In this document: positions 5,555 to 55,727 of the stretch, piece by piece
Layout: every line of letters begins with the position of its first letter
Numbering within the stretch: the stretch's first letter is position 1
Origin: Candidatus Yanofskybacteria bacterium
GTDB taxonomy: Bacteria > Patescibacteriota > Minisyncoccia > JACQLN01
Assembly: GCA_943359335.1 (NCBI GenBank)
Contig: CALRHC010000001.1
Span: 22,466-86,465 of the forward strand
Direction of reading: 5' to 3'
Length of the DNA: 64,000 nucleotides
Made by a program: the position numbers and the translations under genes
The notes under the pieces: model-generated
Seen by the model: only the letters and a program-made list of their open reading frames with translations
What the model was told of the DNA's origin: nothing
Databases searched by the model: none

Positions 5555-6871
5555 ATGTTGCAAAATCCGTTTAGTTTAATATTCGATATTTTGGGAGTAG
5601 TCTCACACCATATTTGGTTATGGGGTTGGGTTTTTTTGCCGATTCTTTTGGCACCATTTTTATGGGATGCCTATATGTACCACATTCGTATTAAAACTTT
5701 AAAAAAATTTAAATGGCAGATGTTGGAATTTCGCTTACCGCCAGATGTGGAAAAAAGCCCATTGGCAATGGAACAGGTTTTAGCAATCTTACAAAGCACT
5801 CTTTTTAAAGGTGGTTGGTGGAAACGCTATGTGGAAGGGCGCGTTCAAGAATGGTTTAGTTTAGAAATAACTTCTTTCGAAGGCGAATTACATTTTTATA
5901 TTCGAACACTTGGGCAATTTAGAAATTTAGTTGAGGCGGCAATTTATGCACAATATCCACAAGCCGAAATTTTTGATGCTGAAGATTATACGGCAAACGT
6001 TCCAGCAATAATCCCAAACGAAACCCACGACCTTTTTGGTTGCGAACTTAAATTGGCACGTGAAGATGGTTACCCAATACGCACCTATAAAGATTTCGAA
6101 TTAAAGACCGAAAGTAGCAAAGAAGGTGGTTCTAATATTTCTTTGGTGGATCCTTTGGCGGGCATAGCCGAAACAATGACGCGTTTAAAAAAAGGTGAAC
6201 AAGCTTGGATTCAAATCGCTATAAGACCAACCGATGACGGTTGGAAAAAAGTAGCAATGGAGACGGTTTTAAAATTAGTCGGGCGCCCTAAAAAAGAAGT
6301 GCCACAGGGTTCTTATATGTGGGCGTTACTTAAAAAAGAATTATCCGATTTTGCTAAGGGAGCAGTGCAAGCGCCTTTTAAAACTCCGGAATTTGAACCT
6401 TTTGAATGGGGTTCACCAAAAAGTGATAAGCCTCACTCATTAATGCAGTTTCTTACTTCGGGTGAAAAAGAAATTATAGAGGCAATAGAAAGAAAAACCT
6501 CTAAAGTGGGTTTTGAGACAGTTATTAGAGTTGTGTATATAGGTACTAAAGAAGCTTTTTATATACCAACATTTTTTCAGGTGGCTTCCGGTTTTAACCA
6601 GTTTAGTACACAAAATTTAAATTCTATAAAAAGAGATGGCGCCACATTAACTGCAGGAAAATTTCCTTTTAAAAAATTTAAAGAAATGCAAAAGAAGAAG
6701 TGGATGTTATATAAATATAGAATTCGCGGCCGACCAGATACTATGTTTGTAATGAATACAGAAGAACTGGCAACACTTTACCACTTCCCAGGACGAGTTG
6801 TTATGGCGCCAAGCTTGCCTAGAGTTCAAGCTAAAAAAGGCGAACCACCAGCAGGATTACCCAGTTATTAG
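5555..6871 (+). CDS. hypothetical membrane protein (2 N-terminal TM segments plus large soluble domain), putative partner of the downstream ATPase
   Basis: 438 aa; hydrophobic N-terminus LIFDILGVVSHHIWLWGWVFLPILLAPFLW; no catalytic motif recognised. Confidence 0.5.
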   Translation: MLQNPFSLIFDILGVVSHHIWLWGWVFLPILLAPFLWDAYMYHIRIKTLKKFKWQMLEFRLPPDVEKSPLAMEQVLAILQSTLFKGGWWKRYVEGRVQEWFSLEITSFEGELHFYIRTLGQFRNLVEAAIYAQYPQAEIFDAEDYTANVPAIIPNETHDLFGCELKLAREDGYPIRTYKDFELKTESSKEGGSNISLVDPLAGIAETMTRLKKGEQAWIQIAIRPTDDGWKKVAMETVLKLVGRPKKEVPQGSYMWALLKKELSDFAKGAVQAPFKTPEFEPFEWGSPKSDKPHSLMQFLTSGEKEIIEAIERKTSKVGFETVIRVVYIGTKEAFYIPTFFQVASGFNQFSTQNLNSIKRDGATLTAGKFPFKKFKEMQKKKWMLYKYRIRGRPDTMFVMNTEELATLYHFPGRVVMAPSLPRVQAKKGEPPAGLPSY

Positions 6872-6896
6872 CTTCATTAGCTTTCAGCTTCTTTAG
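6868..6896 (+). repeat. left arm (AGCTTCATTAGC type) of the intergenic palindromic repeat family
   Basis: TTAGCTTCATTAGCTTTCAGCTTCTTTAG; its complementary arm lies at 7258..7289, beyond the four-helix-bundle gene. Confidence 0.6.
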
Positions 6897-6903
6897 ATAT
6901 TAG

Positions 6904-7266
6904 ATGATAAATTCTTACAAAGATTTAATTGTTTGGCAAAAATCATTGAAGTTATCATTGTTGGCTTATGAACTTACCGAAAAATTTCCAAAAGAAGAAA
7001 TCTATGGCTTAACATCGCAAATAAGAAGATCGGCAGTATCAATACCGTCTAATATAGCTGAAGGAAGATATAGAGGGACAAAAAATGATTTTACTCAGTT
7101 TTTAAGAATAGCTTATTCTTCGGGCGCAGAATTAGAGACACAAATAGAAATAGCTAGAAATTTATCAAAGACAAAAGATTTAGATTATTCAAAAATAGAT
7201 ATTTTAATAGTAGAGGTTATGAAGATGTTAAATGTTATGATAAGAAATATAAATCCTAAAAGCTAA
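6904..7266 (+). CDS. four-helix-bundle protein (23S rRNA intervening-sequence protein family)
   Basis: 120 aa, LIVWQKSLKLSLLAYELTEKFPKEE...QIRRSAVSIPSNIAEG..F..IAYSSGAELETQIEIA is the signature of this family. Confidence 0.75.
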   Translation: MINSYKDLIVWQKSLKLSLLAYELTEKFPKEEIYGLTSQIRRSAVSIPSNIAEGRYRGTKNDFTQFLRIAYSSGAELETQIEIARNLSKTKDLDYSKIDILIVEVMKMLNVMIRNINPKS

Positions 7267-7289
7267 AGAAGCTAGTGAAGCTAAAAGCT
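7258..7289 (+). repeat. right arm (GCTAATGAAGCT type) of the palindromic repeat family, ending at the ATG at 7290
   Basis: AGCTAAAGAAGCTAGTGAAGCTAAAAGCT|ATG; same arm precedes ATGs at 15601, 20835, 23430, 33591 and 36412(-). Confidence 0.6.
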
Positions 7290-9005: not shown

Positions 9006-9456
9006 ACTTTATAGGTATTTCTATTTTATCGTCGTGTTCGGGCAATCCGGATGGATTGTCTTTTTTTAGTATTAAAAAACCAGTGCTTGTTGTTGGTTCT
9101 TTTTCAAAATAAAATTCTTGAGAAAACGGAACAAAATCTGTGGTCATCCATTCTGCTTTTGCTTGAATTGGTTCTAAAAGTAAAACATTTTCATCTGCAT
9201 CTTTAAGTTCTATTGGAAACGAAGCTTCGAAATACCAATTGCCTCTGGCTTCGCCTTCTATTACAAATGGATTTGTTATAATATCCCCAGCTTTAATATT
9301 ATTAACTTTAATTAAATCTTTTTTAGCATCTATTTTTTCTTGGTAACTAGAAATAAATTCTTTAGAAAAAACCGGAGCATATTTTTTATAAACAAATAGT
9401 CCTAGTATAGAAATGGCTGTTACGAAGCAGATAAATATAAGTAATTTTTTAAGCAT
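8998..9456 (-). CDS. hypothetical N-terminally anchored or exported protein (152 aa)
   Basis: Single N-terminal hydrophobic helix LLIFICFVTAISILGLFVY; no motif. Confidence 0.4.
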   Translation of the reverse strand: MLKKLLIFICFVTAISILGLFVYKKYAPVFSKEFISSYQEKIDAKKDLIKVNNIKAGDIITNPFVIEGEARGNWYFEASFPIELKDADENVLLLEPIQAKAEWMTTDFVPFSQEFYFEKEPTTSTGFLILKKDNPSGLPEHDDKIEIPIKFK

Positions 9457-9512: not shown

Positions 9513-10616
9513 ATGTCAAATAGTGTTGATCGAAAGGTATACATAGGAATGTCGGGCGGGGTTGATAGCTCTGTTGCCGCTTTGTTGTTAAAAAACGAAG
9601 GCTATAATGTAACCGGTGTTTTTATGAAAAACTGGAGCGATCCAGCTTGGCCTTGCCCATGGGAAGAAGATCGCGCCGATGCTATGCGAGTTTGTTTAAA
9701 ACTTGGTATACCTTTCGAAACTTGGGATTTTACTAAAGAATACAAAGAAAAAGTTGTAGATTATATGATCCGCGAATACGCGGCCGGCCGAACGCCAAAC
9801 CCAGATGTAATGTGCAATAAAGAAATTAAGTTTGGTTTATTTTTTAATAAAGCCATAGAACTTGGTGCAGATTTTATTGCAACGGGACACTATGTGAGAA
9901 AAATCAAAAATCAAAAATCAAATCTCAAAAATTATGTACTCGCTCGCGCTCGCTATTTAGATAAGGATCAGTCTTACTTTCTTTGGACGCTCAAGCAGGG
10001 TCAGATAGAAAAATGTTTGTTTCCAATAGGCGAAATAGAATCTAAAGCCGAGGTTAGAAAAATTGCAGAAGGAGCAAGCCTGCCTACGGCAGGTAAAAAA
10101 GATTCGCAGGGAATTTGTTTTATGGGACCGGTAGATATAAAAGAATTTATAAAACCATTTGTTAAAAAAGAAATTGGCGATATTGTTACAACTTCTGGCC
10201 CTGGTCGGGCAAGCCAAAAAGTTGGCACGCATGGCGGTTTAGATTTTTATACTATCGGCCAACGCAAAGGTGTCGGCATTGGCGGCACGGGACCATATTA
10301 TGTTGCTAAAAAAGATTACGAAACTAATACACTAATTGTTTCACCTGTTACAGATATGCAATCATTGGAATCCAAATCGCTTACAGCTTCCGATATAAAT
10401 TTTATAGATGAGCGATTTGTCCCGAGTGCAGCCGAGGGAATCCAAATTCAAGCTTCTATTCGTTATCGCCAAGAACCAGTCTCGGCAGTATTGTCGAAAT
10501 TAGAAAACAATAAATACAAGGTAGAATTTGAAAAACCAGTTCGTGCCGTATCTTCCGGCCAATCAGTTGTGTTTTATAATGGAGACGAAATGTTGGGTGG
10601 TGGCGTGATAGAATAA
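9513..10616 (+). CDS. mnmA: tRNA-specific 2-thiouridylase MnmA
   Basis: PP-loop SGGVDSSVAA, catalytic Cys region, C-terminal barrel; contains a low-complexity insert KIKNQKSNLKN encoded by (ATCAAAA)3. Confidence 0.85.
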   Translation: MSNSVDRKVYIGMSGGVDSSVAALLLKNEGYNVTGVFMKNWSDPAWPCPWEEDRADAMRVCLKLGIPFETWDFTKEYKEKVVDYMIREYAAGRTPNPDVMCNKEIKFGLFFNKAIELGADFIATGHYVRKIKNQKSNLKNYVLARARYLDKDQSYFLWTLKQGQIEKCLFPIGEIESKAEVRKIAEGASLPTAGKKDSQGICFMGPVDIKEFIKPFVKKEIGDIVTTSGPGRASQKVGTHGGLDFYTIGQRKGVGIGGTGPYYVAKKDYETNTLIVSPVTDMQSLESKSLTASDINFIDERFVPSAAEGIQIQASIRYRQEPVSAVLSKLENNKYKVEFEKPVRAVSSGQSVVFYNGDEMLGGGVIE

Positions 10617-10656: not shown

Positions 10657-12375
10657 ATGAATTCTCAAGAAATAAGACAGAGGTTTCTTAAATTTTTCCA
10701 AGAACAGGGGCATAAGGCTGTGCCGTCTAGTTCGCTTGTCCCAACCGATCCCTCGGTTCTTTTAACAACTGCAGGAATGCAGCAGTTTAAACCGTACTTT
10801 GTTGGTCAAAAAGATCCGCTAGCCGATTTTGGTTCTAAAAATACTGTGTCTGTTCAAAAATCTTTCCGCACTTCGGATATTGATGAGGTGGGCGATGAAA
10901 CCCACCTAACATTTTTCGAAATGTTAGGGAACTTTAGTTTTGGCGGGTATTTTAAAAAAGAAGCTATCCATTATGGTTATGAATTTATAACCAAAGAAAT
11001 GGGTCTCACTATCGATTACGTTAGTGTTTTTGAAGGAGACTCGGAAGTCCCAGCCGATACGGAATCGGAAGAAATTTGGAGATCTTTAGGAATTACAAAA
11101 ATAGAAAGATTCGGCAGAAAAGATAATTTTTGGGGTCCAACTGGTGCCGAAGGCCCATGTGGCCCAACCACAGAAATTTATGTTAACGGTGTAGAGGTTT
11201 GGAATATAGTTTTTAATGAATACTATATGAAGCCAGATAAAACTTTAGAACCCTTAAAACAAAAAGGCGTAGATACCGGTATGGGTTTAGATCGTTTAGC
11301 GGTTATGGTACAAGGTAAAAAAAATGTTTTTGAAACAGACTTATTAGAACCAATTTTAAAAATTTTGCCAGAGAGTATGGATTCTCGGCACAAGCGAATA
11401 ATAGCCGATCACTTACGTGCTTCTGTCTTTCTTTTAGCCGACGGTGTAATGCCTTCTAATAAGGATAGGGGTTATATTTTGCGCCGATTGTTGCGCCGAG
11501 CATTTACATACGAACATATATATAAATTTTCACCTCAAACTGGCGAATCTTTAATTATAGAAGTTATAAAAAAATATGGTGATTTTTATCCCGAACTACA
11601 AAATCAAAAAAATAATATTATAGATATATATTTTGGCGAGTGGCAAGGTTTTAAATCGGCTTTAGAACGCGGTTTAAAGGTTTTAGAAAAAGAGAATAGT
11701 ATAGATGCCGAAAAAGCTTTTAATTTTTATGAAACATATGGTTTGCCTTACGATATTATAAAAGAAATTGCCGGTGTTAAAGCAGAAAGTTTAACATTAG
11801 AGGGTTTTGATGAAGAGTTTAAAAAACACCAAGAAATTTCTCGTGCTGGGGCCGAAAAAAAGTTTGGCGGGCATGGCATGGTGGAAGGTGATTTGACTGC
11901 GTTAGATGCGGCCGAGATGAAAGTAAAAACCGGTTTGCATACAGTTACACATTTGTTGAATGCGGCGTTGCACAAAGTTTTGGGCGAAGAAGTTTCTCAG
12001 CGTGGATCCGATATAACCGCAGAAAGAACTCGTTTTGATTTTGTTTTTAATAGGAAACTAACCGATGAAGAAATTAAAAAAGTAGAAGATTTGGTAAACG
12101 AAGCTATCTCAGCCAACTACCCAGTTAAAATAGAAACCATGCCACTGGAGGATGCTAAAAAATCTGGCGCTTTATATTTTTATAAAGGTAATTTTCCAGA
12201 AATGGTTAAGGTTTATTCTTTCGGTCCTTCGGCAGACTCAGGATCTCCTTTCAGTCGAGAAATATGTGGTGGTCCACATGTTTCAAGTACTGGAGAAATT
12301 GTAGGAAAATTTAGAATAATCAAAGAGGAAAGTTCAAGCGCAGGTATTCGCAGGATTAGAGCTACTGTGGAATAG
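10657..12375 (+). CDS. alaS: alanine--tRNA ligase, compact 572-aa form lacking the C-Ala domain
   Basis: N-terminal FLKFFQEQGHKAVPSSSLVP...TTAGMQQFKPYF class-II AlaRS motifs; editing-site HTVTHLLNAALH and CGGPHV present. Confidence 0.8.
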   Translation: MNSQEIRQRFLKFFQEQGHKAVPSSSLVPTDPSVLLTTAGMQQFKPYFVGQKDPLADFGSKNTVSVQKSFRTSDIDEVGDETHLTFFEMLGNFSFGGYFKKEAIHYGYEFITKEMGLTIDYVSVFEGDSEVPADTESEEIWRSLGITKIERFGRKDNFWGPTGAEGPCGPTTEIYVNGVEVWNIVFNEYYMKPDKTLEPLKQKGVDTGMGLDRLAVMVQGKKNVFETDLLEPILKILPESMDSRHKRIIADHLRASVFLLADGVMPSNKDRGYILRRLLRRAFTYEHIYKFSPQTGESLIIEVIKKYGDFYPELQNQKNNIIDIYFGEWQGFKSALERGLKVLEKENSIDAEKAFNFYETYGLPYDIIKEIAGVKAESLTLEGFDEEFKKHQEISRAGAEKKFGGHGMVEGDLTALDAAEMKVKTGLHTVTHLLNAALHKVLGEEVSQRGSDITAERTRFDFVFNRKLTDEEIKKVEDLVNEAISANYPVKIETMPLEDAKKSGALYFYKGNFPEMVKVYSFGPSADSGSPFSREICGGPHVSSTGEIVGKFRIIKEESSSAGIRRIRATVE

Positions 12376-12409: not shown

Positions 12410-14113
12410 ATGTCAAAAGAAAATATATATATAGAACTCCACGAAGATATTCAATCGGCAGTTGAAAAAATACAATCTTCCGAAGCCGACACAATAGACC
12501 TAGTAATTCCAACAGGCGCTAGAATATTACAAAATATAGTAGATGCCCATTTAATAAAAGATGTTGCCGATGAATGTGACAAAGATTTAACCGTGATTAC
12601 AAGTGATCTTATGGGTAAAATTTTTGCAGAACGTGCTGGGTTAGCCGTTACTGGTTTAAATGGTGCCGAGGAATCGGGTGTAGTAGTTTCTCAGGCAATA
12701 TCATCTACCGGTAGAATTAGCGATATTATTCCAAGAAAAAGAGGAATACCAATAGGAATATCTTCCGAAAAAAAACAACAAGCAGTTTTAACCGCTAGAA
12801 CAAAAACCGTGGCAAGGTCTTCTGGTGGTTCTAGATCTAACGATAAAAAAGCAGAAGATTTTTATTTAAAGAAAAATAAAGGTGAAAATGGTGCGAGTTT
12901 TTTAAAATCATACAGAGAAGAACGTTCCAAAGCGAATGTTTTTGGTAATTTAAGTAAAATAAATCATAAAAAGTTTTTAAGCCCTAGTTCTTTTGTAGGG
13001 CTTATTGTTTTTGTAGCACTAGCAGTTTCTTTTGTTGTATTTAGCCAAGTTTTACCAAAGGCAGATATTTTGGTATATCCAGCACGTGAAGCAAAAAATG
13101 GAAGCATAGAAGTTTTTATTTCTGGGAAAGATTCTAAAACAGATTTAGAAAAAGGTATAATCCCTGGCGAACTTTTAACGAGCGAAAAAATGGAAAGTAT
13201 CGAATCTCCAGCAACAGGTACCCAAAGTTCTTCTGGTAAGGCACGAGGCAAGATAACTATATATAATACTTATTCAACACAGGCTCAAAAATTTGTATCT
13301 TCGAGATTTCAATCGGAAAGTGGAAAAATATTTTGGACAGTATCTAGTGTTAGTGTTCCTGGGTACACCACAAAGAGCGGGAAAATAGTTCCCGGAGAAA
13401 TTACAACCGATGTTGTAGCAGCCGAAGGTGGGGATTCTTATAATATTGCCTCTTCCAAATTTACAATGCCCGCATTTAAAGGTACTGCTAAGGGAGATAA
13501 AATTTATGCTGTATCTAAAGAAGCTATGACAGGTGGCGGAGCCAATGGAGCCAAAATTGTTTCAACTAATGACGCTACAAATGCATACGATAGCTTAAAA
13601 GAAGAAATAAAACCTCAGTTTGATTCTTTTAAACAAAATTTACCACAAGGTTTTAGTTTTTGGCCCGAAGCCTATAACGAAGAATTGGCTTCGAGTTCTG
13701 TTTCTCCGGAAGTTGGTTCGGTTGCCGAAAAATTTACAGCTACTGTAAAAATGGTGGCTAGAACGATTGTATTTAAAAACGACGATCTAGATTTATACAT
13801 AAACAAAAGAATCTCTAAAGATATAGACGAAAATAAAACATTGTTAACTAGTTCTAAAGATGTTTCTTTCTTAAAACAACCACTTGTCGATTACCAAAAA
13901 GGTACGGTTTCTGCGACTCTAAATGTTAAATACGATGTAATGGATGACTTTAATATAGATTCTTTCAAGAAAAGTATATTAAATAAAAAGAAAACAAACA
14001 TCGATATCGCCGATTATAAAGCCGACCGCATAGAAGTTAACCTTTGGCCGTTCTGGGTGAGGTCTATTCCATCTAATCCGGATAGGGTAAATGTGACCAT
14101 TGTAGGGCTTTAA
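12410..14113 (+). CDS. hypothetical membrane-anchored protein (567 aa; cytoplasmic N-domain, one TM, large Ser/Thr-rich extracytoplasmic part)
   Basis: TM at about residue 190 (FVGLIVFVALAVSFVVF); no recognised motif. Confidence 0.45.
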   Translation: MSKENIYIELHEDIQSAVEKIQSSEADTIDLVIPTGARILQNIVDAHLIKDVADECDKDLTVITSDLMGKIFAERAGLAVTGLNGAEESGVVVSQAISSTGRISDIIPRKRGIPIGISSEKKQQAVLTARTKTVARSSGGSRSNDKKAEDFYLKKNKGENGASFLKSYREERSKANVFGNLSKINHKKFLSPSSFVGLIVFVALAVSFVVFSQVLPKADILVYPAREAKNGSIEVFISGKDSKTDLEKGIIPGELLTSEKMESIESPATGTQSSSGKARGKITIYNTYSTQAQKFVSSRFQSESGKIFWTVSSVSVPGYTTKSGKIVPGEITTDVVAAEGGDSYNIASSKFTMPAFKGTAKGDKIYAVSKEAMTGGGANGAKIVSTNDATNAYDSLKEEIKPQFDSFKQNLPQGFSFWPEAYNEELASSSVSPEVGSVAEKFTATVKMVARTIVFKNDDLDLYINKRISKDIDENKTLLTSSKDVSFLKQPLVDYQKGTVSATLNVKYDVMDDFNIDSFKKSILNKKKTNIDIADYKADRIEVNLWPFWVRSIPSNPDRVNVTIVGL

Positions 14114-15520: not shown

Positions 15521-15600
15521 ATCATCAGCTTCACTAGCTTCATTAGCTTATTAGGATATCAAACCTAAAAACTAAAGAAGCTAAAAGCTAAAAGCTAAAC
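15521..15600 (+). repeat. intergenic palindromic repeat (AGCTTCACTAGCTTCATTAGC ... GAAGCTAAAAGCTAAAAGCTAAAC|ATG)
   Basis: Member of the six-copy family; fills the whole rpsK-rpsD spacer and ends at the rpsD ATG. Confidence 0.6.
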
Positions 15601-16206
15601 ATGTATCAATCAACTTGTAAAAAATGCAGAAGACTAGGTTATAAGGTGTGTGATTCCGCTAAATGCGGTATGGTTCGCAAACCTTATCCACCAGGACAGC
15701 ACGGAAAAAATATTCGTCGCCGTCTTTCTGAATATGGAACCCAGCAAGCCGAAAAACAAAAGCTTAAACTTATTTATGGTTTAAGAGAAAAACAATTTAA
15801 AAAATATTTTGATACGGCTTCTAAAAAAAGCGGTATTACTCCTCAAATAATGATGGAGCTTTTAGAACGAAGATTAGACAATGTTATTTTTAGATTAGGA
15901 CTTGCTCCAACCAGACGTGCCTCAAGGCAATTAGTTGGGCATGGTCATATCACAATAAATAGCAAAAAGGTTAGCTCACCGTCTTATTCTGTGAGCCCAG
16001 GGGAATTAATAGATATTAAAGAATCCAGCAAAGCTAAAAAGACTTTTTCTGAAACCAAAACAATTTTAAAGAAATTTAATCCACCAAGATGGTTAGAGTT
16101 AGATAAAGAAAATCTTTCCGGAAAAGTGATTAGCGTACCAGATAAAGAATTTTTAGCTGGATTACCGGTAGAGGTTTCAAAAGTTTTGGAATATTATTCA
16201 AGATAA
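15601..16206 (+). CDS. rpsD: 30S ribosomal protein S4
   Basis: N-terminal Cys cluster CKKCRRLG..C..C, YPPGQHG, S4 domain. Confidence 0.9.
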   Translation: MYQSTCKKCRRLGYKVCDSAKCGMVRKPYPPGQHGKNIRRRLSEYGTQQAEKQKLKLIYGLREKQFKKYFDTASKKSGITPQIMMELLERRLDNVIFRLGLAPTRRASRQLVGHGHITINSKKVSSPSYSVSPGELIDIKESSKAKKTFSETKTILKKFNPPRWLELDKENLSGKVISVPDKEFLAGLPVEVSKVLEYYSR

Positions 16207-18345: not shown

Positions 18346-19659
18346 AAACTCCCCATCAAAAACTTTTACAGTAGAGTTTTCTAAAATATACAACTTAGAT
18401 TCTTTAGGTAAATAAATTACTTTATCAATTTTATTTTCTGGCCAAGAGGCGATATTTACATTGGAACGAGTGTCTATTTCTGCGGTTTTGAATAATTGTT
18501 CTTCGCTAAATAAAACATATTCGTCAAAGTGATGCCAAAACATTTCTCTTCTAATGGTTTCATTGCTTTGGTAAACTAACTCTTGATCGTTGGTTTTTTT
18601 AATTTGCCCGTTGGTTACTTCTTTTAACCAAATAACGCCAATATTTTTTCCGTTGGAATAAACAGCTTTGTCGCCTTCAAGGGAAAATTCTATAAAGTTT
18701 GGGTTTTCGAATTTAGTTTCACCCAAAGCCGAAATATTTTGTATGGCAGAATCCATCATTAAAAGTATGTTTGGGTTTTTAATAGCGATAATTTTGTTTT
18801 CAAATACATCGAAACTTTGAATGTTACTAAAGTTAAGATCGGTAACTTTTTCTTCTTTAACGTCTATTAAAAACAATTTAGCATCTATTAAGGCGATGAT
18901 GCTGTTTTTGCCAAACCATCTTAGTTCTGTTGGTAAAAACTTTGTAGGCAATGGTGTTGGGCTGGGGTTTTTTAATACTAGTTTTTTTTCGTATAGAGTT
19001 GTTAAGTTGGTAAACAAGTTACTAGTAGAATCGTAAAGATACCAGTTTTTAATAGCTCTTGTTGTTTCTCTTAAAACAATCAATTTTTGTGAATTCTTAG
19101 ACCAACCTTTATTGTTTTCTAAAAAGTTTACACTTTTATTTTTTAACTTATCTGGGAATTTTAATTCAGTCGAAGTGGCATTTATATTTGTTAAATCGCG
19201 CATTAAAATTTTTGCTGTATCTATTTTAATAGCAATAAGTTTTTTATCGTTAGAGATTGAAAAATCGTTTAAGCCTTGTGTTTCCGGCCAAACGATTTGG
19301 CTTTGTAATTGCTTAGGAAAGAGTATTACGTTTTCTGTGTTGGTTACTAAACCTGCGGTAACCTGAAATTCTTTTCCCCATGTTTGAAAAGTTTCTTTAG
19401 AAACATTAATAGTATATTTTTTTGAAGGTAAAAGATTTTTTATTAAAGCTGATCCTTTTTTATTGTAAACCTTACTGTTGTAAGTAATTTCTGTTTCTTT
19501 TGGATACGTTGATTTTACATAGATAGCTCCTGAAAGAACGAAGTTGTTATTTGAAAAATCCCAACGGTAACCTCGGGCGTACACAAGCAAGACAGAGCCT
19601 GCAGTTAAAAATATAACTACGGCTATGCCGAGCAAAATTCGTCTAATTCTTATAGTCAT
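18343..19659 (-). CDS. hypothetical membrane-anchored protein (438 aa, single N-terminal TM, probably beta-rich extracytoplasmic domain)
   Basis: N-terminal LLGIAVVIFLTAGSVLLVYA anchor; no catalytic motif. Confidence 0.4.
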   Translation of the reverse strand: MTIRIRRILLGIAVVIFLTAGSVLLVYARGYRWDFSNNNFVLSGAIYVKSTYPKETEITYNSKVYNKKGSALIKNLLPSKKYTINVSKETFQTWGKEFQVTAGLVTNTENVILFPKQLQSQIVWPETQGLNDFSISNDKKLIAIKIDTAKILMRDLTNINATSTELKFPDKLKNKSVNFLENNKGWSKNSQKLIVLRETTRAIKNWYLYDSTSNLFTNLTTLYEKKLVLKNPSPTPLPTKFLPTELRWFGKNSIIALIDAKLFLIDVKEEKVTDLNFSNIQSFDVFENKIIAIKNPNILLMMDSAIQNISALGETKFENPNFIEFSLEGDKAVYSNGKNIGVIWLKEVTNGQIKKTNDQELVYQSNETIRREMFWHHFDEYVLFSEEQLFKTAEIDTRSNVNIASWPENKIDKVIYLPKESKLYILENSTVKVFDGEF

Positions 19660-19753
19660 TTTATCGACTTTAAGTTAGCACACTTTTCTTTATTTGAAAA
19701 ACTCCAAAGTGATGTTAGGATAAAGGCCAGATTAGAGTCTTATTTTTGTAAAC

Positions 19754-20758
19754 ATGTCGGTAAAAATTGGAATTGATTTGGGAACCGCTAATATTTTGGT
19801 GTTTGTCCCGTCAAAAGGGATAGTTATTAACGAGCCTTCAGTGGTAGCGGTTTCTTTAGATGAAAACAAAATTATGGCGGTTGGGCACGAGGCTAAAGAG
19901 ATGATTGGTAGAACACACGAAGGTATTATAGCTGTTCGGCCCGTTAAAGATGGAGTTATTGCGGATTATCGTATAACCGAAGCTATGATTCGGCACTTTA
20001 TTAAAAAAATAACCGGCAGGTTTAGCTTTTTTAGGCCTGAAGTTATGGTGGCAGTTCCGGCTGGTGTAACATCAACCGAAAGACGGGCTGTTATAGAAGC
20101 TACACTTAAAGCAGGGGCTAAGGCAGCATATGTTGTTAAGGAACCAATTCTTGCTGCTTTAGGCGCTGGCATACCTATAAACGAAGCTTCGGGTAATATG
20201 ATAATAGATATAGGCGGAGGCACTACAGAGGTGGCTGTAATATCGTTAGGAGGGATTGTGGCGTGGGCATCGGCTCGTGTTGGGGGTAATGCAATTGATA
20301 CAGCTATTCAAAACTATATTCACAAGGTTCATAATTTAGCTGTAGGCGAGCGTACTGCCGAGCAAATTAAAATTGCAATAGGTTCTGCTGTGCCAAAAAA
20401 AGAAGAAGAAATTTTAGAGATTCGTGGCCGTGACCTCGTGGCTGGTTTGCCTAAAACCATAGAACTCCATTCCAACGAAATTCCTAAAGCCATAAAAGAT
20501 ACTTTGGCTGAAATTATAAAGACAGTAAAAATGGTTTTACAAGAAACTCCACCCGAGCTTTCCGCTGATATAATGGATAAAGGCATGATTATTTCTGGTG
20601 GTACAGCTTTATTGCGAAATTTGGATAGTTTAATAACTCAAGAAACTGGCGTGCCTTGTTATGTTGCCGATGATCCACTTTTCTGTGTGGTTAAAGGCAC
20701 AGGGATAGCTTTAGAAAATTTAGAATTATATAAAAGAGCGTTGTTTGCTAAGAGATAG
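19754..20758 (+). CDS. mreB: rod-shape-determining protein MreB (copy 1)
   Basis: Actin-fold motifs IGIDLGTANILV, VAVPAGVTSTERRAV, IIDIGGGTTEVAVISLGG. Confidence 0.85.
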   Translation: MSVKIGIDLGTANILVFVPSKGIVINEPSVVAVSLDENKIMAVGHEAKEMIGRTHEGIIAVRPVKDGVIADYRITEAMIRHFIKKITGRFSFFRPEVMVAVPAGVTSTERRAVIEATLKAGAKAAYVVKEPILAALGAGIPINEASGNMIIDIGGGTTEVAVISLGGIVAWASARVGGNAIDTAIQNYIHKVHNLAVGERTAEQIKIAIGSAVPKKEEEILEIRGRDLVAGLPKTIELHSNEIPKAIKDTLAEIIKTVKMVLQETPPELSADIMDKGMIISGGTALLRNLDSLITQETGVPCYVADDPLFCVVKGTGIALENLELYKRALFAKR

Positions 20759-20834
20759 CTTCAAAAGCTTGTTAGCTTCTTTAGCTTGGTTAGGAAAATC
20801 TAAAAGCTAATGCAGCTAATGAAGCTAAATTTTA
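20759..20834 (+). repeat. intergenic palindromic repeat (AGCTTGTTAGCTTCTTTAGCTT ... AAGCTAATGCAGCTAATGAAGCTAAATTTTA|ATG)
   Basis: Family member ending at the holB ATG. Confidence 0.6.
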
Positions 20835-21581
20835 ATGTATTCTCGTCAACTAAAATATTTAGATCTAGTTTTAAAGAACAACGCAGTGCCTCACGCTTTT
20901 CTTTTTTATGGTTCCGATTTTAATTATCAAGTTAATTTAGCCAAAGATTTTTTAATAAAAATAAACAAAGCCGAAGATAAAAAACAAATAATAAACGAAT
21001 CTCATCCCGATACTATTTTTATAAGCCGTGAAGATGAAAAAAAAGAAATAGGCATTGCTCAAATGAGGCGTCTTAAGGATTTTGCATCTTTAACCTCGAA
21101 CCACCTTAAATGTAAGGGTATTTTTATAAAGGAAGCTGAATATTTAAACGAAGAGTCTTGGAACGCGCTTTTAAAAACACTAGAAGAACCAATGGGTAAT
21201 AGTATTATCTTTATTCTTTCTAGTAACATTAAAAACATACCAAAAACTATTGTTTCTCGGGTTGTGAGCTTACCTTTTTATAATGAGGATATTTTAAACA
21301 AAGTCCATAGTCCAAAAGATGATATAATTATTACTAAGCTTTGCAGTATAGAAAAACTTGCTTTTGCAGAAAGAATTGATTTAGCAGAAGAAATAGCAAA
21401 AAAAGAAAATTTTTTTCCGTTATTAGACACTTGGCTAATTAAATTAAGATCAGATTTGCTAGTTAATAATAAAAAAGAAACAGCCGAGTTTATGGAAAGT
21501 TTGGCTAAAGCAAAAAATATTTTACTTTCGACCAACGTAAATACCCGTTTAGTTTTGGAGAATTTATTTTTTAGGGTTTAG
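20835..21581 (+). CDS. holB: DNA polymerase III delta-prime subunit (clamp-loader, AAA+ lid)
   Basis: VPHAFLFYGSDFNYQVNLAKDFL plus the sensor region; 248 aa. Confidence 0.6.
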   Translation: MYSRQLKYLDLVLKNNAVPHAFLFYGSDFNYQVNLAKDFLIKINKAEDKKQIINESHPDTIFISREDEKKEIGIAQMRRLKDFASLTSNHLKCKGIFIKEAEYLNEESWNALLKTLEEPMGNSIIFILSSNIKNIPKTIVSRVVSLPFYNEDILNKVHSPKDDIIITKLCSIEKLAFAERIDLAEEIAKKENFFPLLDTWLIKLRSDLLVNNKKETAEFMESLAKAKNILLSTNVNTRLVLENLFFRV

Positions 21582-22827: not shown

Positions 22828-23358
22828 ATGGAGACACAAGAATTTAAAATTAAACTAAAAGAAGTCGCTACATTTTTGGCGAACGAACTATCAAAAGTGC
22901 GCAGTAACCGTGCTTCACCAGCTTTAGTGGAAGATATATCGGTAGATTATTTTGGCAATAAGACTCCAATAAAGGGTATTGCTAGCATAAGTTCATTAGA
23001 CGCTAGAACCTTGGTTATAGAACCTTGGGATAAAAGTGCCTTGGAACCAATTGCAAAGGCTATTGCCAATGCTAGTATTGGCGCGCAACCTATTGTAGAT
23101 AGCAAAAGCGTTAGATTAAGCTTGCCACAATTAACTCAAGAGCGTAGGCAAGAACTTATAAAATTGGTTTCTCAAAAAATGGAAGAAGCAAAAATAAGAG
23201 CTCGCAGATTGCGTGATGATGCCGTAAAAAGCGCCCAGCAAGAAAAATCCGAAGATATTAAGTTTAGAAAGAAAGACGAAATCGAAAAGGCGATGAAAGA
23301 AAATAATCAGGCTTTGGAAGATTTAAAAAGTAAAAAAGAGAAAGAGTTAATGAACTAG
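22828..23358 (+). CDS. frr: ribosome recycling factor
   Basis: LSKVRSNRASPALVEDISVDYFGNKTPIKGIASIS...LPQLTQERRQELIK. Confidence 0.9.
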   Translation: METQEFKIKLKEVATFLANELSKVRSNRASPALVEDISVDYFGNKTPIKGIASISSLDARTLVIEPWDKSALEPIAKAIANASIGAQPIVDSKSVRLSLPQLTQERRQELIKLVSQKMEEAKIRARRLRDDAVKSAQQEKSEDIKFRKKDEIEKAMKENNQALEDLKSKKEKELMN

Positions 23359-23429
23359 CTTTCAGCTTCATTAGCTTTTAGGAAACTACCTATAAGCTAA
23401 CGAAGCTAACGAAGCTAACGAAGCTAATC
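23359..23429 (+). repeat. intergenic palindromic repeat (AGCTTTCAGCTTCATTAGCTTTT ... (GCTAACGAA)x3 GCTAATC|ATG)
   Basis: Left arm complementary to the right arm; right arm is a 9-bp tandem repeat; ends at the rseP ATG. Confidence 0.65.
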
Positions 23430-24516: not shown

Positions 24517-24604
24517 TCAAAATATCACTCCTCGCAGACGACACGGAGGCCTCTCAATTGTAGAATCGGTCATCTCCGTGATGCTACTCGGATTGATGTT
24601 TTGA
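24517..24604 (+). ncRNA. structured RNA-like element E1 (homolog of the element at 39787..39909), starts 8 nt after the rseP stop; strand inferred
   Basis: 15-nt terminal helix TCAAAATATCACTCC/GGATTGATGTTTTGA; inner helix ACGGAG/CTCCGT; conserved joining strands TCGCAGACGAC and GATGCTACTC identical or near-identical to E2 with compensatory changes in both helices. Confidence 0.5.
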
Positions 24605-24653
24605 TTTTCATGCTATATATAAAAAGCCCCGACAAAGGTCGAGGCTTACTCTT

Positions 24654-25073
24654 TTAACAACACAACTTGGTTTGAGATTTTTTTCTTAATATTATACTTG
24701 TTACTACATCTGAACTTGGAGATTTTGTTTCGTGGGGCATTAGTATTTGGCCCACACATACAGGCATAGTTATATCAATTCCCCCAATTTCTGTATTGTG
24801 TATATGAAGGGCTTTTATTGTAACTTCGCAAATACTCCAGATATTTCCAGTCTTACATAGTTTACAGAAGATCTCCGATTCAGCCGGCCAGTGTTCGGGA
24901 AAAATCTTTATTCTGGCTTCTTTGGTATGGCCATGGATCTTTTTCGGCTTCACATATTCCAGTTCAGCTTTTGCTATGGGCATCCAACCATCCAGTGTGC
25001 CTATAAACAAGTCGTCTAGTCTTACTAAGAGTCTGCAAATTTCTAGTGTCATAGAGCCGATTATATGCCTCAT
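24654..25073 (-). CDS. hypothetical Cys-rich protein (139 aa); weak HGHT-type metal-binding motif
   Basis: KIHGHTKE...HIHNTEIGG; GC slightly above background; no confident family. Confidence 0.35.
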   Translation of the reverse strand: MRHIIGSMTLEICRLLVRLDDLFIGTLDGWMPIAKAELEYVKPKKIHGHTKEARIKIFPEHWPAESEIFCKLCKTGNIWSICEVTIKALHIHNTEIGGIDITMPVCVGQILMPHETKSPSSDVVTSIILRKKSQTKLCC

Positions 25074-30169: not shown

Positions 30170-30250
30170 TGGTGGGGGCAGCGGGATTTGAACCCACGAC
30201 CTACCGATTGGCAATCGGTAGCTCTTCCTACATATCTGAGCTATGCCCCC
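30170..30250 (-). tRNA. tRNA-Gly (anticodon GCC), CCA encoded, unusually long 13-nt D-loop
   Basis: Hand fold: acceptor GGGGGCA/UGCCCCC, anticodon arm ACCGA-UUGCCAA-UCGGU, T-arm GUGGG-UUCAAAU-CCCGC, 3' ACCA. Confidence 0.7.
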
Positions 30251-33506: not shown

Positions 33507-33587
33507 ACACAGCTTCGTTAGTTGTTAGCTTCGTTAGCTTTTAGTAAATTTTGAAAGCTAGTGAAGCTAGAAGCTAAAAGCTAAATA
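33507..33587 (+). repeat. intergenic palindromic repeat (CAGCTTCGTTAGTTGTTAGCTTCGTTAGC ... GCTAGTGAAGCTAGAAGCTAAAAGCTAAATATTG|ATG)
   Basis: Family member ending at the recA ATG (33591). Confidence 0.6.
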
Positions 33588-33590
33588 TTG

Positions 33591-36412: not shown

Positions 36413-36497
36413 TAATTAGCTTTTAGCTTTTAGCTTTTAGCTTTTAGCTTTTTAGAAAATTCCTAACAAGCTAATGAAGCTAATGAAGCTAGTTTTA
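36413..36497 (-). repeat. intergenic palindromic repeat (minus-strand reading: TAGCTTCATTAGCTTCATTAGC ... (AGCTAAA)x5 AGCTAA|ATG of ssb)
   Basis: Five 7-bp tandem AGCTTTT units on plus; same family and same placement immediately 5' of a start codon. Confidence 0.65.
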
Positions 36498-39786: not shown

Positions 39787-39909
39787 ATAAAATATCGTTC
39801 TTCGTAGACGATATGGAGCCTCTTTATTGTATCAAAAGTCTTCCTGCCTACGGCAGGTAAACTCCATACCTGCCCGCCTCTGGCGGGATGCTACTCAGAA
39901 CGATATTTT
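39787..39909 (+). ncRNA. structured RNA-like element E2 in the dnaG-rpoD spacer, homolog of E1 (24517..24604); strand inferred
   Basis: Perfect 13-bp terminal helix AAAATATCGTTCT/AGAACGATATTTT; inner helix ATGGAG/CTCCAT; extra hairpins CCTGCC-TAC-GGCAGG and CCCGCC-TCT-GGCGGG; joining strands TCGTAGACGAT and GATGCTACTC; begins 2 nt after the dnaG stop. Confidence 0.5.
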
Positions 39910-41163: not shown

Positions 41164-43254
41164 TTACTCTTTGCCAAGGAATTTTTTCCAGCCAGGGAAA
41201 TCCTTATAGAAATAATATGGATTACCCGGAAGTTTTGGATCATTTCTATATGATCTTGTATACATAGGTCCTGAGATGATGTTCAGCTTTATCGCCGCTC
41301 TAGAAGCTTCTTTCCATGTTTTGTACTTAATGGATCCACCCAAGAATATAATCCAGCCAGGGAAATCTTTATAAGTCTCATCCGGATTACTTGGGAGTCT
41401 CTCATCTTTTTTGTAGTATCTTTGATACTTGGGTCCAGATGTGATGCCTAGAGATATGGCCGCTACTCCTGCCTCTTGCCAAGTCGGATATCTAACAGTT
41501 CTGTCTAAGAATACTGACCATCCCGGAAAGTTTTGGTAAGTAATTCTAGGTATTGATGGTAGCTTTCTATCTTTTTTATATTCTCCACTTTTATAACCAG
41601 ATGATGTTTTGATGCTCAACTTTACCGCCGCTCTAGAAGCTTCTTGCCAAGTTGGGTAAAAAATATTTTGTAAGAATTCTCCATATCCAGGAAAATCAGG
41701 ATAGGTACTGTTTGGATTTGATGGTAGCCTAGGGTCTTCCTTGTATCTCTCGTTCTTCTTGTAGTCTGTCGTATCTCTAATACCCAACTTTATCGCCGCT
41801 CTAGAAGCTTCTTGCCATGTCGGATACACATTTTCAGCAGTACGCTTGGGACCGCCCTTTCCTAAAAAAACATTCCAACTAGGAAAGTTTTTATAGGTAT
41901 ATGATGGATCTGGTGGTAACTTGTTATCTTTGCGATACATCTCTCGGTATTCGGATACTTTTTTAAGACCAAGTTTTTGTGTGGCTTGTGACGCTTCTTC
42001 CCATGTAGTATAGAATTCTCTTTCGCAATGATCTAGAACTTTCATTAAATCCACTACCTCATCAGAGAAAGTGAACTCAAATCCCTTTCCAGACACTTCA
42101 AACTTTTGTCTAGTATAACCTTCATGTTCTATCTCTTTTTTAGAAGTGTATTCTTCGTGAAGATTGGAAATTTTGTTCATCATCTCAAGTACTAGCTGAA
42201 TACGCTCAAGATTTCCCACAAAGTCTAGAACTATGAGCTTATCTTTTCCAGGACGAAGTCCGCGGCCAAGTTGTTGCCGAAAGACAGTCAAAACTCCAGT
42301 AACTCGGCAGAATGCAACCAATCCAACAGATGGAACATTAACTCCTTCGTTGAAAGCATTTACTGCACATACCCTGCGAACCGTTCCGTTATGCAAAGCT
42401 CCGAGAACTTTTTGGTTCTTACTCCAAGAGTCGTTCTTGTCTTTGCCTTTGCGTGAATGAAATGTTTCTGAAAGTTCAAGTGATTTACTGAGTCTTTCAG
42501 CGTGGGTAATTGAGTCGCAAAATACAACTGCTTTTTCAAGATAACCATTTATGATTCTCGTGATTTCTTCGTCACGTTTCCTTATAAAGATTCGGCGGTT
42601 AACTTCTGCCATGGTAAAACGTTTCTTGCCTTCATGGATTTCAGCTGTAATTTCTTGAAGTACTTTATCGTCCAAACTCTGGTCGGTAATAACGTGATAC
42701 TCAATTCTAGGAAGCCAACTACGGGCAATAGCTTCTTCTAGAGTTATGTTAATCACTTCGGGACCAAAGATGCTACGAATGTCTGCTCCATCTTCGCGGT
42801 CAGGTGTAGCAGTAAGACCGAGCTTAGCTCCGGTGAAGTAATTAGTTACTGGTCGATACGTTTCAGCTTCCGAGTGATGGGCTTCGTCTACGATGATCAA
42901 ACCAAAATGATTTCGTGACCATTGTTTAAGATTGTTTCTCATGGTCTGCCAAGTGGCAAAAACAATATCTCCTTCTTTTGCTCCGTTCTTTGACATGCCA
43001 TTATATATAACCATTCTAGTTTTTCTTTCATCAAAAACTAGGCCGAATTCATCAAGGGCGTGTTTCAGAATATGGTTGTTATGAACCAAAAACAAGGTTT
43101 TTTTGGGACGAAATTTCTTTGTAACAAATATAGCTGTTAGGGTTTTGCCCAAACCAGTAGCCATTACAACCAATGCTCTTTTAGAGTGACTACGTAATTC
43201 TTTCAGAGCGGCTTTAGTGGCTAGCTCTTGGTAAACACGAGGTTCTATCTTCAA
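41164..43254 (-). CDS. SF2 DEAD/DEAH-box (ResIII-type) helicase with five C-terminal tandem repeats of about 55 aa
   Basis: Walker A MATGLGKT, DEAH box IVDEAHH, helicase-C QQLGRGLR; repeats YPTWQEASRAAIKLGI...YK.D.RLPSNP..TY.DFPGW..FLG x5; GC about 41%. Confidence 0.65.
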   Translation of the reverse strand: MKIEPRVYQELATKAALKELRSHSKRALVVMATGLGKTLTAIFVTKKFRPKKTLFLVHNNHILKHALDEFGLVFDERKTRMVIYNGMSKNGAKEGDIVFATWQTMRNNLKQWSRNHFGLIIVDEAHHSEAETYRPVTNYFTGAKLGLTATPDREDGADIRSIFGPEVINITLEEAIARSWLPRIEYHVITDQSLDDKVLQEITAEIHEGKKRFTMAEVNRRIFIRKRDEEITRIINGYLEKAVVFCDSITHAERLSKSLELSETFHSRKGKDKNDSWSKNQKVLGALHNGTVRRVCAVNAFNEGVNVPSVGLVAFCRVTGVLTVFRQQLGRGLRPGKDKLIVLDFVGNLERIQLVLEMMNKISNLHEEYTSKKEIEHEGYTRQKFEVSGKGFEFTFSDEVVDLMKVLDHCEREFYTTWEEASQATQKLGLKKVSEYREMYRKDNKLPPDPSYTYKNFPSWNVFLGKGGPKRTAENVYPTWQEASRAAIKLGIRDTTDYKKNERYKEDPRLPSNPNSTYPDFPGYGEFLQNIFYPTWQEASRAAVKLSIKTSSGYKSGEYKKDRKLPSIPRITYQNFPGWSVFLDRTVRYPTWQEAGVAAISLGITSGPKYQRYYKKDERLPSNPDETYKDFPGWIIFLGGSIKYKTWKEASRAAIKLNIISGPMYTRSYRNDPKLPGNPYYFYKDFPGWKKFLGKE

Positions 43255-51537: not shown

Positions 51538-51602
51538 AGAATTAAGAATTATGATAAGAAAGTTTTTTCTTAATTCATAATTCCTGATTCATAATTCTTT
51601 TT

Positions 51603-55687: not shown

Positions 55688-55727
55688 CAAAACATCCAGC
55701 TCGCCTAGAGAGCTGGATGTTTTTGTT
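55688..55727. terminator. bidirectional terminator AACATCCAGCTC-GCCTAGA-GAGCTGGATGTT with A-run/T-run; 3' end of both rnhA (+) and rnpB (-)
   Basis: 12-bp perfect stem; core CCAGCT...CCTAGA...AGCTGG repeated at 56221. Confidence 0.7.

Follow-up and report, generated by a model that had tools for sequence, protein, structure and literature searches.

Two homologous hairpin elements follow rseP and dnaG

In the stretch analysed here, 64,000 nt of Candidatus Yanofskybacteria DNA that we refer to as the window, the gene rseP (Peptidase_M50) ends with a TAA stop codon at 24509, and 7 nt further on begins a structured element, E1 (24517-24604, + strand). A second element, E2 (39789-39909, + strand), lies in the dnaG/rpoD spacer, starting 3 nt after the dnaG stop codon (TAA, ending at 39785) and ending 15 nt before the rpoD ATG at 39925. 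The initial annotation had described the two as homologous and built to a common layout, which both the reading of the sequence and covariance-model (CM) matches bore out; its coordinates for E1 held, and the start of E2 had to be moved from 39787 to 39789. E1 is a complete copy of the subtype that we call type A below (107.7 bits with model R1, 94 bits with model R2) and E2 is a type-B-like copy (41.4 and 35.1 bits). Both have a terminal helix that is A-rich on its 5′ side and T-rich on its 3′ side, a TCGYAGACGAY 5′ joiner, an AYGGAG/CTCCRT inner helix and a common loop start, (G)CCTCT..ATTGTA.

The terminal helix of E1, P1, pairs the 5′ arm TCAAAATATCACTCC (24517-24531) with the 3′ arm GGATTGATGTTTTGA (24590-24604) over 15 positions, among them one U.G and one C.U mismatch. 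The inner part of the 5′ arm, ATCACTCC, is conserved in the family and the outer part, TCAAAAT, is specific to this copy. The 5′ joiner TCGCAGACGAC (24532-24542) and the 3′ joiner GATGCTACTC (24580-24589), the latter identical in E2, had been taken as conserved and single-stranded; they are conserved, but only partly single-stranded, as GYAG pairs with CUAC and Y11 with R1′. The resulting helix P1a is formed in E1 by GCAG (24534-24537) and CTAC (24584-24587), with one C.A mismatch, and is followed by an internal loop of ACGA (24538-24541) opposite ATG (24581-24583). The innermost helix, P2 (CACGGAG/CTCCGTG, 24542-24548 with 24574-24580), encloses the 25-nt loop GCCTCTCAATTGTAGAATCGGTCAT; the inner helix ACGGAG/CTCCGT of the initial annotation corresponds to 24543-24548 and 24574-24579.

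The E2 5′ arm AAAATATCGTTCT (39789-39801) forms a perfect 13-bp helix with 39897-39909. Its 5′ core half reads TC, GTAG, ACGA, T, ATGGAG (39802-39818), with the 5′ joiner TCGTAGACGAT at 39802-39812, and the inner helix ATGGAG/CTCCAT joins 39813-39818 to 39862-39867; the P2 3′ strand continues with an A (39862-39868 in all) that pairs with T39812. The 3′ half consists of GATG, CTAC, TC and the P1 3′ arm AGAACGATATTTT (39887-39909), its first ten positions being the 3′ joiner GATGCTACTC (39887-39896). E2 is longer than E1 because two GC-rich mini-hairpins are nested inside it, CCTGCC-TAC-GGCAGG in the P2 loop (39843-39857) and CCCGCC-TCT-GGCGGG between P2 and the 3′ joiner (39873-39887). The first of these, together with 4 further nt, makes up a 19-mer, CCTGCCTACGGCAGGTAAA (39843-39861), that recurs at 10079-10097 of the window, within the open reading frame (ORF) 9513-10616, and similar GC-rich hairpins fill the dnaG/rpoD spacer of a related locus, L040. 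CCTGCCTACGGCAGGTAAA may be a separate mini-hairpin repeat able to sit in coding sequence.

Taken singly, the 10-11-mer motifs common to E1 and E2 are not above chance in the window when one mismatch is allowed, which is what a fortuitous likeness between two unrelated terminator-like hairpins would look like. The joint pattern, in contrast, occurs twice against an expectation of 0.00, the CM E-values are ~1e-23 to 1e-26 for E1 and ~1e-6 to 1e-8 for E2, and relatives carry more than a dozen homologues (see below), so coincidence is refuted for practical purposes and keeps a vanishingly small probability. A CM search of the 64 kb returned E1 and E2 as the only true sites; its other matches were ordinary terminators that share the shape of A-tract, stem and T-tract. 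Measured against shuffled sequences, the folding z-scores of E1 and E2 were −3.5 and −6.3 on the + strand and −4.7 and −7.4 on the − strand.

About 20 nt beyond E1, and not part of it, lies a GC-rich bidirectional terminator (24624-24647) that serves both rseP and the convergent ORF 24654-25073; an intrinsic terminator scan called this hairpin and called neither E1 nor E2. The earlier impression that the pair resembles none of the common RNA families agreed with an Rfam covariance-model search of the window, in which no family matched, hammerhead, twister, twister-sister, pistol, hatchet and HDV-like ribozymes, riboswitches and sRNAs included. At gathering thresholds the whole window yielded RNase P RNA and one tRNA only, and at E ≤ 10 over both element regions nothing credible overlapped E1 or E2, the best nearby match being BSnc120 (30 bits against a threshold of 114) on the neighbouring terminator (24603-24693). 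The RNase P RNA is of bacterial type A (55723-56168, − strand, 145 bits) and has a 75-nt insertion in one helix; the tRNA lies at 30173-30250 (− strand), and in the H52 genome this tRNA position, upstream of ftsK, holds tRNA-like sequences and a RAYT-like gene. Frame reading of all copies likewise agreed that no meaningful ORF is present: the frame ATG-GAG-CCT-CTT-TAT stops after 6-30 codons at varying places, type A lacks the ATG altogether, and minus-strand frames are not conserved among copies.

Related genomes carry further copies in three subtypes

To place E1 and E2 in their lineage, we gathered orthologous loci via homologues of RpoD, RseP and DUF8128. With two loci from the exact-pattern scan described below, this gave ~240 kb of sister-genome DNA (the loci with L numbers), and ~300 kb of the clade in total; genes in the relatives are ~78-90% identical to those of the window at the DNA level and synteny is conserved. 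Scanning the window and these loci with models R1 and R2, built for the element, revealed at least 14 copies besides E1 and E2 in the relatives (E ≤ 1e-6). Copies beyond the original pair, on whose existence the initial annotation had made its proposal depend, are thus found in relatives. They are ~85-120 bp long, fall into three subtypes and occupy 13 different spacers; all copies are intergenic, and the genes that flank them are unrelated housekeeping genes.

Four copies lie in L040 (16190-16282, 17633-17724, 20711-20803 and 19592-19696), in the adk/map, ydjM/ruvX, galT/tpiA and GT2/galT spacers. L169 has two (9861-9951 and 12978-13070, in the frr/rseP and proS/mreB spacers), L170 has one between an mreB-like gene and holB (2452-2542), and L045 has three (11152-11240, 20822-20915 and ~19655-19790) at the rpoD-3′, galT/tpiA and GT2/galT positions. 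A copy with an inverted core sits in the dnaG/rpoD spacer of L037/L047 (9881-9989), and the GT2/galT spacer filled in L037/L047 holds the L047 copy at ~20918-21030. The exact-pattern scan contributed one copy in a polX/ogt spacer (L010, 5023-5115; this genome is also represented by L035, a Patescibacteria bin from Hainich groundwater) and one between a murF-like Mur ligase gene and a tRNA (L011, 1670-1760), in an assembly that encodes an RpoD 86% identical to that of the window. CM scans found no copy in L041, L043, L171-L175 or the rest of the window.

Type A, ACGGAGGCCTCTCAATTGTAKAATCGGTCAT, comprises E1, the L010 copy and L169a; type B reads ATGGAGCCTCTTTATT...AGTCTT; and type C has TCGCTC joiners on both sides. 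Within type A, the cores of E1 and the L010 copy are the same over 58 nt, at different loci of genomes that are ~85% identical.

Genome and metagenome collections were searched by an exact-pattern scan, which is too strict for ACAG/CUGU types or TCGCTC joiners. It gave 12 matches in a 185k-species genome set, two of them genuine (L010 and L011), and 23 in JGI/ENA metagenomes, the single genuine one coming from the same genome as L010; the remaining matches were mostly chance hits in GC-rich genomes. Four patterns run against IMG/VR gave chance matches only, and BLAST of phage and plasmid collections detected no copy. Given the 78-90% identity of the relatives and the 86% identity of the L011 RpoD, the family is therefore confined, as far as seen, to one genus-level clade. 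Its distribution within the clade is patchy, with four copies in 5 kb of L040 and none in 21 kb of L173; the ~16 copies in ~300 kb from several genomes extrapolate to tens per Mb-sized genome.

Three helices covary around a conserved core

In the consensus fold, P1 spans 12-18 bp. The claim that the terminal helix changes between copies was right, although not for its whole length: the inner 8 bp (ATCRYYCC/GGRRYGAT) are conserved in the family and only the outer 5-7 bp are copy-specific, yet complementary. The outermost arm sequences thus differ from copy to copy (TCAAAAT, GGAAAC, CAATCGC, GGAGGC), and the arms overall read AAAAY-ATCRYYCC ... GGRRYGAT-RTTTT. Inside P1 follows a UC/UC mismatch and then the 4-bp P1a, whose variants covary (GUAG/CUAC, GCAG/CUGC and ACAG/CUGU, with C.A intermediates; columns 21-24 with 74-77). 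The internal loop between P1a and P2 places ACGA opposite AUG and is invariant in types A and B, save for one G in L169b. P2 has 7 bp, Y-R plus AYGGAG/CUCCRU, with a C-G to U-A exchange at two positions; its columns (29-35 with 64-70) are 98.8% paired and two pairs change on both sides. The apical loop of ~24 nt starts with CCUCU and ends with GUCUU.

Across an alignment of 12 sequences, 89.6% of cells are paired, as against 38-51% with the partner strand slid, and changes on both sides occur at 17 of 25 pairs; none of 500 shuffles reached the observed values. The covariation proposed for two helices from E1 and E2 alone thus stands and extends to a third. Sequence is maintained in the core and at a few unpaired or mismatched positions, whereas the arms maintain complementarity alone; an A.C at the fifth P1 pair is retained in types B and C even though their arms otherwise differ. 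A pseudoknot between GUCU of the loop and AGAC of the joiner was rejected, as it shows no covariation and type C drops AGAC while retaining GUCUU. Nor did the internal loop, by inspection, fit the consensus of a K-turn or an 11-nt receptor.

Orthologous spacers gain, lose and exchange the element

The spacers that hold the element are short and lie immediately 3′ of an ORF, whose strand the element shares, and orthologous spacers differ between species in whether the element is there. The adk/map and ydjM/ruvX spacers contain it in L040 only; the window, L037 and L045 have these genes overlapping (ATGA). L170, the closest relative (94% identity in RseP), lacks E1: there 5 nt separate the rseP stop codon from the terminator described above, which is kept. 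The proS/mreB spacer measures 7 nt in the window and holds a copy in L169, and GT2/galT carries the element in L040, L037/L047 and L045, the two genes overlapping in the window. In all, the whole unit is present or absent at at least six orthologous sites. Because empty sites hold no palindrome at that place, the entire hairpin including its arms is the unit of insertion or deletion, and this unit also takes in a few flanking bases.

Insertion into pre-existing terminator hairpins was rejected on the same grounds, since the empty adk/map, ydjM/ruvX and rseP-3′ sites have no palindrome at the position of the element. Copying of the outer arms from target flanks was rejected as well, as no similarity was seen at the compared sites.

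In other sister genomes, unrelated palindromes replace the element at frr/rseP, mreB-like/holB, rseP-3′ and galT/tpiA; these are hairpins of TTAGCTT/AAGCTAA repeats, a GAGCTTACGA|TCGTAAGCTC palindrome, and GC-rich or AT-rich hairpins. The TTAGCTT/AAGCTAA heptamer family is itself present in the window, as tandem AAGCTAAYG units facing inverted copies (20760-20832, 23350-23429, 33513-33588, 36459-36494, 6856-6903 with 7251-7286, and 15568-15602), and fills the mreB-like/holB and frr/rseP spacers, where L170 and L169 have the element. L169 contains two perfect or near-perfect palindromes of 40-46 nt centred on GAGCTTACGA|TCGTAAGCTC (9055-9094 and 11047-11092), the latter at the rseP-3′ position that E1 occupies in the window. 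The galT/tpiA spacer bears three different hairpins in three species: an AT-rich one, AAGAATTATGA...TCATAATTCTT, in the window (51530-51600), a type B copy in L040 and a type C copy in L045.

Copies are also altered in place. The dnaG/rpoD copy of L037/L047 has the arms and flanks of E2 and a core that is inverted relative to the genes; this core has decayed, its P2 5′ strand being replaced by another hairpin. At least four copies (E2, L037m, L047d and L045c) contain smaller nested hairpins, and both the P2 loop and the junction between P2 and the joiner tolerate insertions of 15-30 nt. The P2 region has the appearance of a hotspot at which further hairpins insert. Nested perfect hairpins AACCTTRCTTGAGYAAGGTT, CTATCTGCCGACAGGCAGATAG and ATGAATCTTGCCTAAGCAAGATTCAT were noted in L047 (~20940-20970), L045 (~19685-19715 and ~19740-19762) and L037 (9915-9945). 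Between species, then, the element comes and goes, gives way to unrelated palindromes, takes up smaller hairpins and in one case is inverted, with gains and losses polarised on a rough identity-based tree. It is dispersed, polymorphic and invertible, and its hairpin is preserved.

Orientation and strand asymmetry

At 13 of 14 sites the element is sense to the upstream gene; the remaining site is found in both states. Helix mismatches on this sense strand are A.C or C.A in 11 cells at six or more positions, versus one or two G.U. Folded as RNA, the complement is the more stable strand in 12 of the 13 sense copies, by ~6 kcal/mol on average. Such mismatches and the better antisense fold are not what selection on a sense RNA predicts. 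A cell-level binomial test gave p ~0.1, and the asymmetry is suggestive only, because many cells are inherited and not independent. The GC skew of the sense strand is −0.14 (C > G), compared with +0.14 (G > C) for the surrounding leading strand; along the + strand of the window it is G > C throughout (+0.04 to +0.22). The leading strand carries nearly all of the neighbouring genes, so that orientation to genes and orientation to replication are confounded.

The identity of the E1 and L010 cores, the retained A.C, the orientation bias and the broken core of the sole inverted copy require that the core be under purifying selection or that copies were exchanged recently. The conservation between these two cores exceeds neutral expectation. 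Together with the fixed mismatch and the biased orientation, the core identity would be compatible with a protein that specifically recognises single-stranded DNA (ssDNA) or RNA.

Relation to known interspersed repeats

REP units are palindromes of 20-40 nt, GC-rich and with an unpaired GTAG or CGTC tag, two of which in inverted order around a spacer form a REPIN (Di Nocera et al. 2013, PMC3733652; Bertels and Rainey 2011, PMC3116915). In several respects the present element resembles a REPIN. It is a short extragenic palindrome, mostly downstream of ORFs with co-directional or convergent genes and plausibly transcribed, as PMC3116915 and PMC3733652 describe for REPINs. It forms a long imperfect hairpin of ~80-110 nt with compensatory changes and several subtypes per genome, has GTAG/GCAG (CGTC on the complement) at the foot of the inner hairpin, and occurs in a clade in which at least one host genome has Y1/RAYT-like genes. 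It differs in that its halves (GYAG-ACGA-YAYGGAG plus an imperfect inverse) are not small GC-rich palindromes, its GYAG pairs with CURC and is not an unpaired tag, its copies would, by extrapolation, number tens per genome and not the ~100 or more of REPINs, and the RAYT-like genes score below the cut-off and lack a flanking element.

MITEs (miniature inverted-repeat transposable elements) are non-autonomous derivatives of DDE transposons, and the broader MITE-like class takes in ERIC, Correia/NEMIS, RUP and the like (PMC3184786, PMC3116915). Presence or absence of the whole unit between strains, and nested hairpins, are features that our element shares with it. Members of the ERIC/Correia/RUP class are units of ~70-150 bp that form a single long hairpin in transcribed spacers, accept nested repeats and act on mRNA processing and stability, not by way of an RNA gene. 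Their terminal inverted repeats are conserved in sequence, a target duplication (TA or another) is usual and they occur in both orientations; the present element has copy-specific outer arms, shows no duplication and is oriented ~13:1. Arm sequence is conserved over the inner 8 bp and the outermost 5-7 bp differ; a full-length insertion sequence (IS) with the ends of the element was not found in the ~300 kb.

attC sites offer a third comparison: they lie directly past stop codons, are co-oriented and 57-141 nt long, keep structure over sequence, and have extrahelical bases and a bottom-strand fold. The element is like them in its stop-adjacent, co-oriented placement, its size, its conserved mismatched bases and its better bottom-strand fold. 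It has no RYYYAAC/GTTRRRY boxes, IntI or cassette array, and its neighbours are syntenic core genes; the terminal structure of attC varies, whereas the central loop of the element is strongly conserved. The examined loci hold no tyrosine recombinase. Finally, bidirectional terminators share the order of A-tract, stem and T-tract past stop codons, but where an intrinsic terminator has a short GC-rich stem-loop with a U-tract right behind it, the stem of the element is ~30 bp long, AT-rich, interrupted and closed by a 25-nt loop, and a consensus scan does not call it. A Neisseria uptake signal of the DUS kind (common CGTCTG) was ruled out on copy number and size.

The element is thus a new family within a known kind of repeat, one that departs from REPINs, MITEs and attC sites in defining features; a conserved centre with variable, compensating arms and an unexplained strand asymmetry are its unusual features.

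A probable interspersed DNA repeat transcribed as a 3′ hairpin

We interpret E1 and E2 as copies of a quasi-palindromic DNA repeat, interspersed and specific to its lineage, which the transcript of the upstream gene would carry as a 3′ hairpin (estimated probability ~0.6). On the best reading of the sequences, it is of the same general kind as REP/REPIN, ERIC or MITE-like elements, and its host clade is a genus-level group of Patescibacteria (Parcubacteria/'Minisyncoccia'). The initial annotation had argued from covariation to selection on RNA structure and not on DNA. This step is not supported: REPINs, which are mobile DNA, also preserve their hairpin by compensatory change (PMC3116915), and the element is dispensable and inverted at one orthologous site. 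The A.C mismatches on the sense strand and the better antisense folding in 12 of 13 copies weaken it further. Among the identities first offered (a 3′-UTR (untranslated region) or terminator module, a small non-coding RNA (ncRNA) family, a miniature mobile element), a miniature mobile element and a lineage-specific 3′-UTR module fit best.

As a mechanism we propose infrequent spread by way of a folded single-stranded intermediate, in which the fold and the conserved unpaired bases would serve for recognition. An HUH/Y1-type enzyme would be the best candidate for mobilising the repeat. Complementarity of the arms may be kept because only hairpin-competent copies propagate or persist, and correction by intrastrand template switching may add to it; template-switch correction of quasi-palindromes could be another source of compensatory change. 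After insertion, co-transcription of the repeat with the upstream gene would give a generic hairpin, 3′ or intercistronic, whose effects would be modest: it could shield against 3′ exonucleases, offer a processing site or cause partial termination. Effects of this generic sort on mRNA decay, processing and read-through are described for REP/ERIC hairpins (PMC3733652).

Two paralogous Y1 HUH (RAYT-like) genes, 38% identical, occur in L169 (2985-3776 and 17158-17832), and such a gene also stands at the start of L037/L047; the window has no RAYT-like homologue. Neither of the L169 genes is flanked by the element and no ends are shared. The hairpin AAAAAGGACCGCCCTTTT, which borders the second of them, also occurs as single copies in L045 and L173. 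One small IS was seen in all, at 14830-15801 of L173 (HTH_32 plus rve_3), and its 32-nt imperfect inverted repeats are unrelated to the element.

Several observations weigh against a mobile repeat. Movement was never directly observed and gains are inferred by parsimony on the rough tree; the empty GT2/galT spacer of the window, for one, is probably a loss. Neither a transposase nor an autonomous parent for the element was found in the ~300 kb. The RAYT-like genes reach only 39 bits with NF047646 (cut-off 80) and the second L169 gene is flanked by direct copies of AAAAAGGACCGCCCTTTT, not of the element; for these two reasons no link between such genes and the element is established. No target-site duplication is visible between filled and empty rseP-3′, adk/map and ydjM/ruvX sites. 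REPINs have conserved ends and a compensating middle, the reverse of the conserved centre and variable outer arms seen here, and the density is low and patchy (about one copy per 15-30 kb where present, zero in several loci). The 13:1 sense bias would also fit a function at the RNA level, as would the fact that the sole inverted copy is the sole one with a broken core. Core identity, a mismatch at a fixed position and 13:1 orientation go beyond what a decaying selfish repeat needs.

Alternative explanations

A dedicated cis-acting structured RNA in 3′ UTRs and intercistronic spacers, whether protein-binding, processed or possibly catalytic, duplicated to several operons and kept for tuning the stability or expression of neighbouring genes, would account for the strong covariation in three helices, for the invariant unpaired UC/UC, ACGA/AUG and loop CCUCU...GUCUU, for sense placement directly past stop codons at 13 of 14 sites, for the loss of P2 in the sole inverted copy and for identical E1 and L010 cores despite ~15% genomic divergence. 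It does not sit well with the turnover, as orthologous sites in the closest relatives have overlapping genes or another palindrome instead, nor with flanking genes that have nothing in common. The sense strand carries A.C and not G.U mismatches and folds less well than the antisense strand, P2 loop and P2-joiner junction accept 15-30 nt of insertion, the joiners of type C are wholly different, and Rfam offers no match even at E ≤ 10. We therefore hold such an RNA to be unlikely, if still to be reckoned with. We give a decidedly small chance to an undescribed, structure-recognised kind of element that would take one of two forms. In one, the bottom-strand fold, with its fixed G.T mismatch and conserved loop bases, would be the substrate of an unknown enzyme of the candidate phyla radiation (CPR), in the manner of attC or HUH systems. 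In the other, the core UC/UC, GYAG/CURC, ACGA/AUG, GGAG-CCUCUUUAUU...GUCUU-CUCC would be a new catalytic or protein-binding RNA under strong purifying selection, and apparent mobility would be duplication of a useful module.

The bottom-strand fold could also be a recombination or transposition site of a known type, like attC or the hairpins of IS200/IS605 or REP, whose shape and mismatched bases a recombinase or HUH nuclease would read and which would mark or move adjacent ORFs, or move itself alone. Placement directly past ORFs in co-orientation, a length of 85-120 nt, variable stems with conserved unpaired or mismatched positions (such as the fifth P1 pair of types B and C, A.C above and G.T on the bottom strand), the better bottom-strand fold and the Y1 HUH genes of the H52 genome all point that way. 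This is nevertheless very improbable: the loci hold no integrase or cassette array and the neighbours are core genes in conserved synteny, the arms lack the RYYYAAC/GTTRRRY consensus of attC, and the Y1 genes are not flanked by the element. By GC skew, moreover, the bottom strand is the leading-strand template, and IS608-type elements prefer the opposite template strand. Still less probable is a cassette of transcriptional punctuation, that is, an intrinsic terminator or attenuator for the upstream gene with an optional promoter in the loop to restart the downstream gene. The arms are A-rich 5′ and T-rich 3′ like local bidirectional terminators, and the structure model cross-matches real terminators; a promoter scan finds ACGACA-17 nt-TAGAAT within E1, with a −35-like box in the 5′ joiner and TAKAAT in the loop, and the loop of every copy has a TATAAT-like hexamer. 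Yet the terminator scan passes over E1 and E2, a canonical terminator stands 20 nt past E1 and is present in L170 without it, and many copies are inside operons whose genes are otherwise translationally coupled. One promoter-like match in 500 nt equals the shuffle expectation of 1.3, the −35/−10-like spacing varies between 14 and 17 nt among copies and type C has no −35-like box; the loop promoter was rejected for this inconsistent spacing.

Other features of the window

Within ORF 41164-43254 (− strand), four tandem coding repeats of 165-168 nt, 62-76% identical, extend over 41255-41826. The ORF is present in the window and L037 and absent in L040, between rpoD and a UvrD-like gene.

Implications for streamlined genomes

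CPR genomes are thought to be extremely streamlined, and repeats of this type have hardly been described in them; our literature searches returned no description of small interspersed palindromic repeats in Patescibacteria. Unexpectedly, this family and the hairpin families found in its place at the same spacers indicate that intergenic hairpin modules continue to be exchanged between species even where genomes are ~1 Mb in size and genes overlap. There is also reason for caution, as clean compensatory covariation among paralogous copies is not enough to identify an RNA gene. A repeat model for the annotation of CPR genomes would prevent such elements from being miscalled as small ORFs, terminators or novel ncRNAs. 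If the strand asymmetry and the conserved mismatch do reflect recognition of an ssDNA fold, the element could lead to an unknown mobilising enzyme.

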